DNA of 64,000 nt from Verrucomicrobiota bacterium (GTDB lineage Bacteria; Verrucomicrobiota; Verrucomicrobiia; Opitutales; Cerasicoccaceae). Each line of letters starts with the position of its first letter. Position 1 is the first letter of the stretch. Shown here in pieces: positions 30,001-33,000 of the stretch. The stretch is taken from assembly GCA_039818205.1 (NCBI GenBank), contig JBCBUK010000003.1:1-64000 (forward strand). The letters run 5' to 3'. The position numbers were made by a program.

Positions 30001-33000
30001 ACGCCGAAAAGCAGGCCGAGTTGAAGCCAGGCTCCGACGATTGCGCAGATTTTGCCAGTTGGATGGCTCACTCTAGACCTCCCGATACCAAACGCGGATA
30101 AACTGATGCCAATTCGAGAAGCCGTCTCCGGTTGATCTCAGGCTCTGGTCTTCAGATCCACTTTCGTTTTCTGCGTGGATGTTGGGGAGCACCACTGTCT
30201 CAATATTAATCACGACTACGCCGTGGTGGCCGATCCAGTTGTTGGCCCGCTCGACAGCCTCGGAGAGTTCTTCGAAGCTCGCTTCGCGGAATATTCCACC
30301 GCGATCTTCAACGGTGGGGACAAAGTCTTTGTATTTGATCATGACGTCGTGACTGGAAGGTGAAAGCTTGGCGTAGTTGAGTCAAACTTGATCGGATTTA
30401 GACGGAAATCGTGAACGTGGATAAGTCAATAACCTGCTGATTACCAAATAAAAGGGTTGTCAATTGGGCCAAAATACCGCATTTGTTATTAAAATCCTTC
30501 ATGCGACTCGACCGATACATTTCTAAATCCCGTATCATTGATATTGTGAGCGGCGATTTCGAAGGAGCGCTCAAGGAACTGTTGGAGGTCTGCAAGTTAC
30601 CCGAGGAGGCTGGCATGACCAAAAAGCAGCTTCTGGGCGAGCTTATCGAACGTGAACAAACCATGACGACCTACCTGGGCAGTGGTATATGTTTGCCGCA
30701 TGTTCGGATTCCGATGAAGCGACCTTACCAGTTCGCGATTGGTCGCTGCCCTCGTGGTTTAGAGTTTGATGGTCACGAGGAGTATCGCGACATCCGTCTG
30801 GTCTTCTTGTTGCTCGCCTCGGAGAAAGAGAAGTCCTACCTGAATGTCCTCGCGTCGCTCGCGCGAACCTTTCAGGAGCCCGGCCTGGTCGACAAGCTTA
30901 CGAAGTCCCCAGACATCGAAGCCTTGCGGGAAGGGGTTGCTGAGGGCTTCGGCGGTGGTTCTGCCAAGCAAGGGACGAAGGATAACAAATTTAATCGGCT
31001 GATCCTGCGCGAGGCGGTCAAGGTGGCCAAGGGCTCGCAGAGTTCTGCGATCATGGTTTTTGGCGATACCTTTGTTGGCGGCGTGGATTTGACTGAGTCA
31101 TTCGGTGACACAAAAACGCTTTTGGTTACTCAGGCCGCCTCGGAGGTTTCCTACGACAACAACAAAGTGACTACAGTCATTCCGGCGCGGTCCTTCGGCA
31201 ATAGCCGCTTGTCGCAACTGCGCAGCGCGATGCTGATTGGGCTCACCCGAGGTATCATTAAGCACAACGAGCGCCTTTGCTGTGTGGGTGGCCTTCCGCA
31301 TAGTAATCAGTTTGACACCCTCGTTGTCGTTGATGTTGAGCGCGAGTTTCAGAGTGTTTTGACGCGGCAGACGGATATGTTGCCCAGTGCGGTTAAGCCG
31401 GAGGTCCTTGAGCGGGTCCTTGGCATTGCCACTGAGCTTTCGGTTGAAGGTCGAGAGGGTAAGCCGGTTGGATCATTGTTCATCCTTGGAGACTCCCAGC
31501 AAGTGAAGCCGCATACCAAACAGCTCGTTCTTAATCCGTTCTTTGGCTACGAAGAAGAAGAGCGAAATATTTTGAATCCGTTTATGGACGAAACGGTTAA
31601 GGAATTCTCCCTGCTCGACGGCGCCTTCATCATCCGTGGAGATGGTGTGCTGGAAGCCGCGGGCACCTTGATCCATGCTAATGAACTGCCTCAGCAACTT
31701 CCCAGCGGTCTGGGAACGCGTCACGCCGCCGCTGCTTCCATTTCGATGGCGACCGATTGCATCGCACTCGTGGTTTCCGCGAGTTCGGGGCAGGTGACAC
31801 TGTTTCGCCGCGGACAGATGCTGCCACTGATTGAGCGCAACGCCAGCCGAGAACTTTAGCCACTACTTTTCATTCCGATATAATATATATTGCTGAAACC
31901 CTAACCCCGTTTAAATAGTCAAATGAATATCTTGTTGCTTCGCCGACGGGCGCATTGCGTGATTGCGCTGTGCCTGACAGCTGCGTCGCCTACTGCTTTT
32001 TCCGCATATACCGAGTATTCCGCCACTGCTCACGAACGCCATCTCGAGATGGAGGAATACTTCGAGGACCACGCAGATATGACTCTGCCTGAAAGTTTCG
32101 ATGCCTGGTGGAACTATCGGTACATGCTTGGGGACGGAGCCGTCCGTGATGATCTAGCCCGTGAGGGCATAACCGTCTCCATGAAATTCGTTACCGATAG
32201 TCTCGGAAACGTATCTGGTGGACGAGACCAGGGTTTCACCTACACTGGATCGCTCGGCTTTGATGCGGAGGCTAGTTTGGAAAAACTCATTGGATTTAAA
32301 GGGTCCGACTTTTATGTGTCGGCCGTTTGGCGGTCTGGTTCAAGTCTGTCAAATAAGTATATCGGCAACGTTTTCCAAACGCAGCAGGTCTTCGGCGGAC
32401 AGAATTTGCGCTTATATGCCTTCAACTTGCGGCAGCGATTTATGGATGACCAGTTGGTGTTCCGGATTGGGCGGATTGCGCAAGGTGACGAGTTCTTGTC
32501 CCGGCCTATTTATTGGAGCTATGTGCAGAATGCCTTCGATGGAAACCCGGTTTCTATCTTTCTAAACTCACCCGTTTATGCCTATCCGAATTCAACTTGG
32601 GGCGCGTTTGTTCGCTTCAAGTCGAACAAGGATCCGTTCTACATCCAAGGGGGCGTCTATGGTGGTCGCAAGAGTCCACCGCAAAATCGAAACAGTGCAC
32701 ACGGCTTGGACTGGAGCTTTGACTATGAGGACGCCTATTTTATCGCCCAGGGCGGTTGGACGCCCGAGCTGGAGATTGGCGGGCAGTCGGGTTTGGCAGG
32801 AAATTATTCAATGGGTGGCTACTATGTGACCGGAGATCACGAGAAGCTGCTGCAGCCCGCGACTGTGGCGGGTGTCCCGCGCCGGGTCCGCATCAAAGAG
32901 GGTTTGTGGGGCTTGTATTGGATGGTCGATCAGATGGTCTATTCCAATGGCGTGAATTCCAAGGGGGCGAAGACGGGAATAACGCCTTGGTTTGTCGTGA

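Follow-up and report, generated by a model that had tools for sequence, protein, structure and literature searches.

A diadenylate cyclase with a built-in EIIA domain as the possible end point of a permease-less phosphotransferase system in Opitutales

The only diadenylate cyclase of a Verrucomicrobiota genome (assembly GCA_039818205.1, order Opitutales) carries the only PTS_EIIA_2 domain of that genome, and we see about an even chance that this cyclase is the end acceptor of a phosphotransferase system (PTS) lacking permeases, with its output set by phosphorylation of His67. The gene lies in the window, by which we mean the whole stretch of DNA that was analysed (64,000 nucleotides, positions 1 to 64,000 of contig JBCBUK010000003.1).

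The control of c-di-AMP synthesis is poorly understood for most cyclase classes, and the purpose of PTS proteins in bacteria without PTS transporters is a long-standing question. The family described here joins both questions in one protein, a cyclase with a built-in PTS acceptor that is usually the organism's only EIIA. The comparative pattern that we report has three elements: a PTS without permeases across the order, a lone cyclase, and the decay of His67 and of HPr residues with the loss of the kinases. If our reading is true, c-di-AMP would let carbon and energy state bear on osmotic and K+ control in polysaccharide degraders that abound in the sea and in soil. The protein itself is typical of its class, which is known but has yet to be characterised.

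The cyclase gene and its domains

The gene sits in an open reading frame that spans 30483..31859 on the forward strand. Translation from the ATG at 30501 gives 452 aa; of 23 aligned homologues, 22 begin at the same point and one carries two extra residues. Our own Pfam run returned essentially the same values as the survey's finding for the three-domain architecture of PTS_EIIA_2, DacZ_P and DAC, and the His67, DGA and RH motifs are all in place in the translated sequence (Table 1). The PTS_EIIA_2 match (PF00359) has an E-value of 4.9e-19 and 69.2 bits, against a cut-off of 27; the DAC match is to PF02457 (DAC/DisA_N).

In the full-length AF2 model (pLDDT 85.6, pTM 0.61) the folded EIIA domain covers about aa 1-152 and is followed by a short low-confidence stretch. 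Its best Foldseek matches are the IIA-Ntr structures 2a0j, 3urr, 4gqx and 1a6j, with TM(target) values of 0.77-0.82. DacZ_P is a probable ligand-sensing domain related to the C-terminal domain of pyruvate kinase; several homologues have a precomputed PF02887 (PK_C) match as well.

Table 1. Features of the cyclase gene in the window
Feature	Position	Strand	Basis
EIIA-DacZ_P-DAC diadenylate cyclase gene, 452 aa	30501..31859	+	stop codon included; ORF, translation, Pfam, N-terminus common to homologues
PTS_EIIA_2 domain (IIA-Ntr/Mtl/Fru type), aa 29-144	30585..30932	+	Pfam; AF2 model and Foldseek
Arg51-Glu52 codons, conserved RE of the EIIA_2 active site	30651..30656	+	aligns with RE of IIA-Mtl and PtsN
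His67 codon CAT, predicted phospho-acceptor, motif LPH	30699..30701	+	alignment; codon verified in the window
Tyr113 codon, where EIIA_2 proteins have their second conserved His	30837..30839	+	alignment to IIA-Mtl and PtsN
Low-confidence linker, aa 153-161, EIIA domain to cyclase core	30957..30983	+	AF2 pLDDT <50
DacZ_P domain, aa 163-284	30987..31352	+	Pfam 1.5e-15, 57.4 bits against cut-off of 27.4
DAC catalytic domain, aa 314-439	31440..31817	+	Pfam 8.5e-21, 74.2 bits against cut-off of 27; alignment to CdaA structures
DGA motif, residues 373-375 of DAC	31617-31625	+	codons verified in the window
RH motif, residues 407-408 of DAC	31719-31724	+	codons verified in the window
Cyclase stop codon	31857-31859	+	codons verified in the window

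D373-G374-A375 align with the DGA of CdaA structures, and all 79 diverse representatives have both DG[A/G] and RH. Where CdaA has the last Arg of its RHR motif, the window protein has Ala; this position is variable among DacZ-like relatives, with Ala the commonest. Judged by its family membership and intact motifs, the DacZ_P and DAC core would synthesise c-di-AMP from two molecules of ATP.

In this genome the cyclase has no pts gene nearby, and eight of its nine neighbours (GNAT, NamZ, DUF2062, two small ORFs, TPR, GS and a thioredoxin-like protein) recur at 0 of 80 related loci. The adjacent OprB was considered as a clue and rejected, since OprB stands beside the cyclase in only 1 of 80 related loci. 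A scan of 29900-33500 for promoters and terminators found sites no more numerous than in shuffled sequence, and Rfam gave no match at the cyclase gene, its only match in the window being a tRNA.

A PTS without permeases

The genome (4.85 Mb in 66 contigs, 99.97% complete) was searched with Pfam profiles. The claim that it holds a sole DAC and a sole EIIA_2 domain is borne out by one match to each, both within the cyclase gene. EI, HPr and HPr kinase (HprK) are indeed kept, with one HPr, one strong HprK and one EI match above the cut-off (621 bits). There is also no sign of a PTS permease, as the survey had proposed: seven families (EIIA_1, EIIA-man, PTS_EIIC, EIIC-GAT, PTS_IIB, PTS_EIIB and EII-Sor) have no match in this genome. 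The absence of EIIB and EIIC is supported by the lack of a match to PF02378, PF03611, PF03609, PF02302 and PF00367, in a search that did not extend to PTS_EIIC_2, the glucitol families, lactose-type IIA or sorbose IIB.

The HPr carries the His15-Arg17 and Ser46 motifs, and neither motif varies among 20 HPr sequences from the order. The EI, of 592 aa, consists of PEP-utilisers_N, PEP-utilizers and PEP-utilizers_C only; because a domain search found no GAF domain in it, the system falls outside PTS-Ntr strictly defined. Comparable regulatory systems are the PTS-Ntr of proteobacteria, with its EIIA-Ntr (PtsN), and the EI-Ntr/NPr/EIIA/HprK system of Brucella and other alpha-proteobacteria, which in Brucella is described as permease-less and purely regulatory (PMC2937029). 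Shared with the present system are the EIIA_2 fold and its active-site His, a relay without EIIB or EIIC, and an HprK that acts on the carrier. The differences are that the EI of the window's genome has no GAF domain, that its carrier has an HPr-type Ser46 motif, and that its EIIA is fused to an enzyme instead of being free and has Tyr in place of the second conserved His. K+ homeostasis is reported to be regulated by PTS-Ntr (PMC13104625); in other bacteria it is also where c-di-AMP chiefly acts (bioRxiv 10.1101/2023.07.05.547876).

As to the further parts of a c-di-AMP circuit, the genome has a gene of the PgpH type, whose 7TM-HD product is a candidate c-di-AMP-degrading enzyme. No c-di-AMP riboswitch was found in three genomes of the genus, and DarA/PstA was not found among the c-di-AMP effectors searched.

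The EIIA active site

His67 occupies the alignment column of His65 of IIA-Mtl, where the H65Q mutant chain 2few has Gln; the PH of PtsN structures falls at the same place. It is invariant in an alignment of homologues (A1) and present in 75 of 79 diverse cluster representatives of 27-51% identity (A2), in which R51 is found 74 times and E52 78 times. The alignment used for folding (A3) was built without the four representatives that lack His67, so its invariant H67 is a product of that choice and the true count is 75 of 79.

The second conserved His of EIIA_2 proteins (His111 of IIA-Mtl, His120 of IIA-Ntr) is absent: its column, which holds the His of eHi in IIA-Mtl and of aHL in PtsN, is occupied by Tyr113. 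Almost every genome of the order has Tyr at this position, and among the 79 diverse representatives it is His in 52, Tyr in 14 and Phe in 6.

A complex prediction of the EIIA domain (aa 1-152, A3) with the genome's HPr (A4) scored 0.19 against a mark of 0.32, which speaks neither for nor against binding.

Distribution of the fusion and of its partners

We examined a sample of 151 Opitutales genomes, the window's own included. DAC occurs in 146 of them, with exactly one match in 143, and nearly all of the 146 DAC-positive genomes have the EIIA-DacZ_P-DAC fusion; the survey's view of the fusion as a lineage trait therefore holds. EI was found in 125 of the 151, HPr in 129, HprK in 122 and EIIC in just 6. 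Exactly one EIIA_2 match is present in 100 genomes; another 39 have further EIIA_2 matches, and there the relay can therefore branch. The full state (EI, HPr and DAC present, one EIIA_2, no EIIC) is found in 78 of the 151 genomes, a count in which EIIA means the EIIA_2 type only, the other EIIA families having been searched in the window's own genome alone.

DacZ_P is found in 29 of the 151 genomes of a separate sample of the phylum, namely all 27 members of the order and two other genomes of the phylum, and in no other order of the class within that sample. A second clade with the fusion bears spirochaete names (6 of the 120 homology-search matches listed), and active-site residues are invariant across two phyla.

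Decay of His67 and of HPr residues

We compared the state of residue 67 with the presence of EI in 142 assessable genomes of the order. EI and His67 are both present in 106 and both absent in 13, EI is present without His67 in 12, and His67 without EI in 11. Put otherwise, His67 is kept in 106 of 118 genomes with EI, and the site or the whole domain is gone in 13 of the 24 genomes without it. Replacement of His67 in a domain of full length accounts for 12 genomes with EI and 8 without. About six of the eight inferred changes of His state fall in lineages without EI. When EI was set against His67 on a tree of the cyclase core, an independent-pairs test yielded only two to three pairs and has no power. 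The EI-less lineages are fast-evolving reduced genomes, so general relaxation may account for part of the decay at residue 67.

One family of the order has genomes of 0.8-1.1 Mb. There, His67 is kept in all four members that have EI and HPr, and a member without EI and HPr has a cyclase of 294 aa from which the whole EIIA domain is gone. The sixth member, with HPr and no EI, retains His67. DGA and RH are intact in every member. More widely, five truncated cyclases showed no EIIA remnants under code 11 or code 4 (best E-value 0.065), and a search of the five genomes with a domain-less cyclase found no stand-alone EIIA_2.

The residues of HPr decay in step with the loss of their kinases. Genomes that lost EI and kept HprK have a replaced Arg17 beside an intact Ser46 motif; in those that lost HprK and kept EI, the Ser46 motif is altered and Arg17 is intact. 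The gene hprK lies directly downstream of the cyclase gene, on the same strand, in four reduced genomes of one genus (with a gap of 39 nt in G003). In genus g6, EI is absent, HPr lacks Arg17 and has the Ser46 motif, His67 is changed to Tyr, and hprK follows immediately downstream.

Two families do not fit the pattern. Both have EI, HPr and HprK and keep the EIIA domain, and residue 67 is Tyr in 7 of 7 genomes of one (f5) and Asn or Ser in 5 of 5 of the other (f30). The proposal that the relay ends on the cyclase is thus only partly upheld: it gains comparative support from the alignment of His67, its conservation and its decay with the loss of EI, and these two EI-positive families without His67 count against it.

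A proposed mechanism and its rivals

In the relay that we envisage, phosphate would pass from PEP to EI, to His15 of HPr and then to His67, the N-terminal EIIA domain serving as the terminal acceptor on a flexible linker. Since no EIIB or EIIC drains phosphate, the phosphorylated fraction of His67 should follow the PEP:pyruvate ratio. Phosphorylation of HPr at Ser46 by HprK/P would let the glycolytic and energy state throttle the relay, as is known of HprK behaviour. Whether the EIIA domain is phosphorylated would in turn alter the output of the cyclase, in either direction, the likely route being a change in the packing of EIIA on the DacZ_P/DAC core or in the pairing of two DAC domains. DacZ_P may supply a second, metabolite-binding input, and the PgpH-type 7TM-HD protein may remove the product. 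Carbon status probably sets c-di-AMP production.

We also offer a broader proposal, tentatively and at somewhat less than an even chance. In Opitutales and the clade with spirochaete names, the essential messenger c-di-AMP may stand directly under a stripped-down PTS. Phosphorylated His67, its level following PEP:pyruvate by way of EI and HPr with HprK as the gate, would switch the only cyclase. PTS-Ntr-type EIIA, of proteobacteria, and c-di-AMP, of Gram-positives, both regulators of K+ and osmotic state, would then act in series within one polypeptide. Reduced genomes without EI may have re-tuned the module to HPr(Ser-P), a possibility raised by the change of His67 to Tyr, the loss of HPr Arg17 and the placing of hprK in an operon with the cyclase.

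Against phosphorylation of His67 as the switch stand the loss of this residue in families f5 and f30, the 11 EI-less genomes that retain it, and Tyr113. The further EIIA_2 matches in 39 genomes, the lack of pts genes or of a conserved neighbourhood around the cyclase, and the Ala in place of the last Arg of RHR also count against the proposed relay. One rival is an EIIA-like domain that regulates the cyclase without His phosphorylation, as a module that docks or binds a partner such as HPr(Ser-P), HprK or some metabolite; the role of His67 would then be mainly structural or in binding. The survival of a full-length domain after replacement of His67, in EI-positive and EI-less genomes alike, agrees with such a module, as do genus g6, with its Tyr67, Ser46-only HPr and adjoining hprK, and the Tyr at the second active-site position across the order. 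We nonetheless consider it unlikely, because His67 is invariant in all the other EI-positive families, because its presence in 75 of 79 distant representatives is more than a structural role at a surface loop would call for, and because Arg51-Glu52 of the phosphotransfer site is conserved alongside it. That the EIIA domain is a relic with no present regulatory role, EI, HPr and HprK serving unrelated functions, strikes us as very improbable. Its degeneration or deletion in some lineages while the cyclase core persists would be expected of a relic, and so would the retention of EI and HPr without His67 in f5 and f30; however, the active-site residues are invariant across two phyla, EI and HPr of the 78 genomes would be left without any other acceptor of the EIIA_2 type, and the domain averages 58% identity to the order consensus in genomes with EI and His67, although domain-identity ratios are biased because the consensus was built from those same rows.

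The protein might, alternatively, be bifunctional, its phosphorylated EIIA domain acting on K+ transporters or sensor kinases as free PtsN does and its cyclase being set by DacZ_P or other inputs, so that the fusion mainly co-localises the two. Here the fold and sequence of the domain, closest to IIA-Ntr, are in accord, and the disordered linker together with the pTM of 0.61 means that no fixed interface between EIIA and core is predicted; PtsN proteins are moreover reported to work through partner binding (PMC13104625). Yet the fusion is strictly kept, in nearly all DAC-positive genomes of the order and in the spirochaete-named clade, and loss of the relay goes with deletion of the domain, not with its survival as a gene of its own: a stand-alone EIIA_2 was found in none of the five genomes whose cyclase lacks it. 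We regard a bifunctional protein as quite doubtful.

Relation to known cyclases and PTS-controlled proteins

The description of the protein as an archaeal DacZ type is right only in part. DacZ is its top NCBIfam match (NF041371, spanning aa 199-441), but at 114.4 bits it falls well short of the equivalog cut-off of 430. Pfam DacZ_P (PF21755) had no match in 14 control genomes, M. jannaschii and H. volcanii included. Like H. volcanii DacZ and M. jannaschii CdaZ, the window protein has a pyruvate-kinase-C-like sensor domain ahead of DAC and is the sole cyclase of its organism; unlike the window protein, the archaeal enzymes have no EIIA domain. A PTS_EIIA_2 domain is, we presume, the defining feature of another class, DacD. 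H. volcanii DacZ is reported as the sole cyclase by Braun et al. (2019, PMC6741144), the appendix of which uses the class DacD from the scheme of Corrigan and Gründling (2013) and gives as its representatives Lacunisphaera, Puniceicoccaceae, Coraliomargarita, 'Opitutae' and 'Verrucomicrobia'. Records under these taxon names encode full-length relatives of the window protein, which probably belongs to the published DacD class, the match being one of taxon names and not of accession sequences. On that reading the EIIA-cyclase architecture is already catalogued and is not a new discovery. In the literature searched we found no experimental work on DacD and no paper that describes an EIIA domain fused to a cyclase or a PTS acting on c-di-AMP synthesis. 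That search did not include Galperin (2023), Corrigan and Gründling (2013) or Commichau (2018), which may well describe the architecture.

Among better-known cyclases, CdaA (regulated by CdaR and GlmM) and DisA (regulated by DNA structures) have a DAC domain homologous to that of the window protein. In them, as would be the case here, a sensor that is attached to the cyclase or associated with it sets the output, but those sensors are linked to the membrane, to cell-wall precursors or to DNA, and none is known to accept phosphate from a PTS. For a PTS-controlled switch built into a protein outside transport there is a precedent in PRD-type activators such as MtlR and LicR, which have an EIIA_2-like phospho-acceptor domain. 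The output of these activators is transcription, through proteins that also contain PRD and EIIB-like domains, whereas that of the window protein is a nucleotide cyclase.

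The cyclase carries the only EIIA_2 match of its genome

The gene lies in an open reading frame in which the ATG at position 30501 gives a protein of 452 residues; this starting methionine is common to 22 of 23 aligned homologues. As the survey had reported, the protein joins an EIIA, a DacZ_P and a DAC domain, each matched well above the curated Pfam cut-off, and the residues that it had named were confirmed (see table).

Coordinates of the cyclase gene, its domains and residues, and other loci discussed in the text
Feature	Location	Strand	Remarks
Cyclase open frame	30483-31859	+	
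PTS_EIIA_2	aa 29-144	+	Pfam, E 4.9e-19
DacZ_P	aa 163-284	+	Pfam, E 1.5e-15
DAC	aa 314-439	+	Pfam, E 8.5e-21
His67 codon CAT	30699-30701	+	read from sequence
Asp-Gly-Ala; Arg-His	aa 373-375; aa 407-408	+	read from sequence
Promoter-like site	31857-31884		between cyclase and OprB genes
OprB-family carbohydrate-selective porin	31923-33326	+	E 8.5e-67; starts 64 nt past cyclase stop
Glutamine synthetase	34676-35698	-	340 aa; Gln-synt_N, Gln-synt_C
Exo-beta-N-acetylmuramidase NamZ	27592-28959	-	
DUF2062 gene	28850-29629	-	
Cyclase-hprK tandem (L010)	G003:C1:225625-227955	same strand	39-nt gap
hprK locus (L004)	G000:C19:55746-59252		
EIIC cluster	G094:C1:196284-201269		similar in G025, G079, G084, G121, G143
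Second DAC protein (L038)	G057:C1:1270713-1271582		
Second DAC protein	G016:C7:19048-19389		
Second DAC protein	G127:C1:4473999-4474349		

The N-terminal part aligns with the structures of PtsN and IIA-Mtl, with His67 in the column of their phospho-acceptor histidine (Q in the H65Q mutant chain 2few), Arg51-Glu52 in that of the conserved 'RE', and Tyr113 in that of the second conserved histidine of EIIA_2 proteins. This second active-site residue is tyrosine in almost all genomes of the order and histidine in 52 of 79 diverse cluster representatives of the family; judged from the alignments, this tyrosine marks a change in the phosphotransfer site that is specific to the lineage. Solved CdaA/DacA structures align with the C-terminal part, DGA and 'GTRH' falling in register; where CdaA has the last Arg of 'RHR', this protein has alanine, at a position variable among DacZ-like relatives. 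Modelled with AlphaFold2 from 106 sequences, the protein reaches a mean pLDDT of 85.6 and a pTM of 0.61, with a low-confidence linker at residues 153-161. The structures closest to the model are four of IIA-Ntr (TM on target 0.77-0.82); CdaA and DisA come next. The survey's description of the cyclase as the archaeal DacZ type stands only in part: the core is DacZ-like, but it scores 114 bits against the DacZ equivalog cut-off of 430 and is thus not a DacZ equivalog, and Pfam DacZ_P has no match in archaeal control genomes.

In the source genome (4.85 Mb, 66 contigs, 99.97% complete; all but 908 bases available to the searches), the single DAC match and the single PTS_EIIA_2 match both fall within this gene, as previously claimed. 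Also in agreement with that claim, the genome keeps one EI above the NCBIfam cut-off (621 bits; 592 aa with three PEP-utiliser domains and, by domain search, no GAF domain), one HPr with the motifs GIHARPA (His15) and GRSIMGLM (Ser46), and one HPr kinase (HprK) with both Pfam domains. The reported lack of an EIIB/EIIC permease was borne out for the families searched: PTS_EIIA_1, EIIA-man, PTS_EIIC, EIIC-GAT, PTS_IIB, PTS_EIIB and EII-Sor have no match, the search extending to neither PTS_EIIC_2, the glucitol families, lactose-type IIA nor sorbose-type IIB. The pts genes sit on contigs other than the cyclase's, and no conserved neighbourhood of the cyclase gene was found among 80 related loci. 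The genome also has a PgpH-type 7TM-HD gene, which encodes a candidate c-di-AMP phosphodiesterase; neither a c-di-AMP riboswitch nor DarA/PstA was found in three genomes of the genus.

At locus L004, hprK is flanked on one side by an ABC-ATPase gene (Pfam ABC_tran) that we read as LptB-like and on the other by an ORF that we read as DnaA-like; the setting recalls the lptB-rpoN-ptsN region of proteobacteria.

The state of the order and the spread of the family

We examined a sample of 151 Opitutales genomes, the source genome included. DAC is present in 146 (exactly one match in 143) and has no match in the other 5, and 148 contain a match to the cyclase, in nearly every case spanning residues 1 to about 447, which agrees with the earlier view of the architecture as a lineage trait. 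HPr was found in 129 of the 151, EI (E <= 1e-60) in 125, HprK in 122 and PTS_EIIC in 6; PTS_EIIA_2 occurs exactly once in 100, two or more times in 39 and not at all in 12. The complete state of the source genome (EI, HPr, one EIIA_2, DAC and no EIIC) recurs in 78 genomes, 72 of which also have HprK. From these counts, a permease-less EI-HPr-HprK set with a single cyclase bearing the only EIIA is therefore the order's normal condition.

In the six genomes with EIIC, it is encoded in a cluster together with a large EIIA-HPr-EI fusion (open frames of about 720-900 aa), apparently a fructose-type PTS that was acquired separately and accompanies the resident EI and HPr. Three genomes have a second DAC protein, that of G057 being an EIIA-less DacZ_P-DAC form (29% identity). 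In genome G030 (2.3 Mb, 99% complete, 8 contigs) we could find no DAC, and its only EIIA_2 match is an unfused frame of 185 aa, some 17 kb away from EI; G030 seems to be a member of the order that has the genome size of a free-living bacterium and lacks c-di-AMP synthesis.

A homology search with the cyclase returned 2,539 proteins at E <= 1e-5 among 8,000 candidates scored. All 120 matches listed share its three Pfam domains and are 59-91% identical to it, and the protein is a member of a large, tightly conserved family; among these matches the closest named protein is from Cerasicoccus maritimus (90% identity), other names being Rubellicoccus, Coraliomargarita, Lentimonas, Puniceicoccaceae and Opitutaceae. 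In public annotation the protein goes under two names, 'diadenylate cyclase' and 'PTS sugar transporter subunit IIA'. When all 50%-identity representatives were searched exhaustively, 345 proteins scored E <= 1e-30, including many full-length three-domain forms at 27-36% identity; with one of these as query, 120 three-domain proteins were listed, 6 with Spirochaetia or Spirochaetota names. A second clade of the fusion carries spirochaete names. In a 151-genome sample of the phylum, DacZ_P occurs in 29 genomes, comprising all 27 members of the order and 2 others, with none in other orders of the class.

Natural loss of EI and of His67

We aligned 146 cyclase genes from the order and set aside five rows: the EIIA-less G057 paralogue, G145 (only a short divergent DAC protein), G018 and G123 (genes split at contig ends, whose N-terminal pieces do carry His67) and G005 (truncated at residue 79, where its contig stops). 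In 142 assessable genomes, His67 is kept in 106 of the 118 with EI (12 lack it) and in 11 of the 24 without EI; in these 11, Arg51 is often replaced. The 13 EI-less genomes lacking His67 comprise five with Tyr (one genus of family f4), two with Asn (f8), one with Cys (f19) and five whole-domain deletions (4 of 4 f37 genomes and one of f39). The shortened f37 and f39 ORFs are 294-352 aa, and no EIIA remnant was found upstream of them under code 11 or code 4. Within f39 (0.8-1.1 Mb genomes), His67 is retained by the four members that have both EI and HPr and by one that has HPr and no EI; the domain is gone from the member that has neither. DGA (or DGC, DGG, DGS) and RH are intact in all assessable rows.

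The EI-less lineages have reduced genomes that evolve fast. In a FastTree phylogeny of cyclase core residues 165-446 (142 rows), EI state changes 3 times and His67 8 times, and an independent-pairs test yields 2-3 pairs, too few for significance. The EIIA/DAC identity ratio falls from 0.75 (EI and His67 present) to 0.48 (both absent), a measure that is biased because the consensus came from the former group.

HPr residues, like His67, decay in correlation with loss of their kinases. In the f4 genus, which has HprK and no EI, Arg17 beside His15 is lost and the Ser46 motif is kept; f39 members with EI and without HprK show the opposite, retaining His15-Arg17 beside a diverged Ser46 context. In four genomes of the EI-less f4 genus (G003, G091, G112 and G131; about 0.9 Mb), hprK directly follows the cyclase, itself His67 to Tyr, on the same strand; in the fifth, G149, hprK is not detectable downstream of the cyclase.

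A proposed relay ending on the cyclase, and its alternatives

The DacZ_P-DAC core, encoded by the sole candidate gene in the genome, is predicted from family membership and motifs to make c-di-AMP. Phosphate would pass from PEP through EI and HPr(His15) to His67, the EIIA domain being the putative terminal acceptor; a relay ending there is supported by genome content, the order-wide state and the natural-loss pattern. Because no transporter drains phosphate, the level of His67~P is expected to track PEP:pyruvate, and HprK would gate this flow through Ser46 of HPr. Phosphorylation of His67 would alter cyclase output via the flexible linker, perhaps by changing how EIIA packs against the core or how DAC domains pair; DacZ_P is a possible metabolite-binding domain. 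We judge the chances of the whole model, in which the PTS relay tunes the sole cyclase, to be about even. The survey's proposal that a remnant relay sets c-di-AMP by the PEP/carbon state gains comparative support from the joint retention of EI and His67; against it stand the EI-less genomes that keep His67, the few independent pairs, and families f5 and f30, in which 7 of 7 genomes have Tyr and 5 of 5 have Asn or Ser in place of His67, while EI, HPr, HprK and the EIIA domain are all kept; some of these genomes have a separate small EIIA and others have none.

The f5 and f30 genomes also speak for a reading in which EIIA is a phosphorylation-independent docking domain, possibly sensing HPr(Ser-P); given the wide retention of His67 beside EI, we consider this unlikely. 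Less probable again is that the protein is bifunctional, with an EIIA domain that works on other targets in the manner of PtsN. That the EIIA domain is a relic seems very improbable beside its conservation across the order, even with its outright deletion in f37. The relay is similar to the permease-less regulatory PTS of proteobacteria, but its EI has no GAF domain, its carrier is of the HPr type and its EIIA is fused to an enzyme.

The cyclase class 'DacD' is, we presume, defined by a PTS_EIIA_2 domain. Braun et al. 2019 (PMC6741144) give its representatives from exactly the taxa carrying this fusion. The classification is that of Corrigan and Gründling 2013; Galperin's census of 2023 defined 22 cyclase families, as stated in PMC12901056. 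Our literature search found no paper on an EIIA-cyclase fusion or PTS control of c-di-AMP synthesis, although Corrigan and Gründling 2013 and Galperin 2023, outside that search, may contain it. We regard the gene as typical of an uncharacterised cyclase class that has very probably been catalogued already. New here are the order-wide single cyclase and single EIIA without permease, the spirochaete-named clade, the correlated decay of His67 and HPr residues with kinase loss, and the cyclase-hprK tandem in one reduced lineage. The fusion would not surprise specialists, yet it makes carbon-state control of c-di-AMP synthesis directly testable.

Neighbouring genes

The adjacency of the cyclase and OprB genes occurs in 1 of 80 related loci and is not conserved. 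The glutamine synthetase encoded nearby is short, the usual bacterial GSI being far longer than 340 aa. The listed NamZ and DUF2062 ORFs overlap by about 110 nt, and we therefore prefer for NamZ an internal methionine, ahead of a signal-peptide-like stretch, as the probable start.
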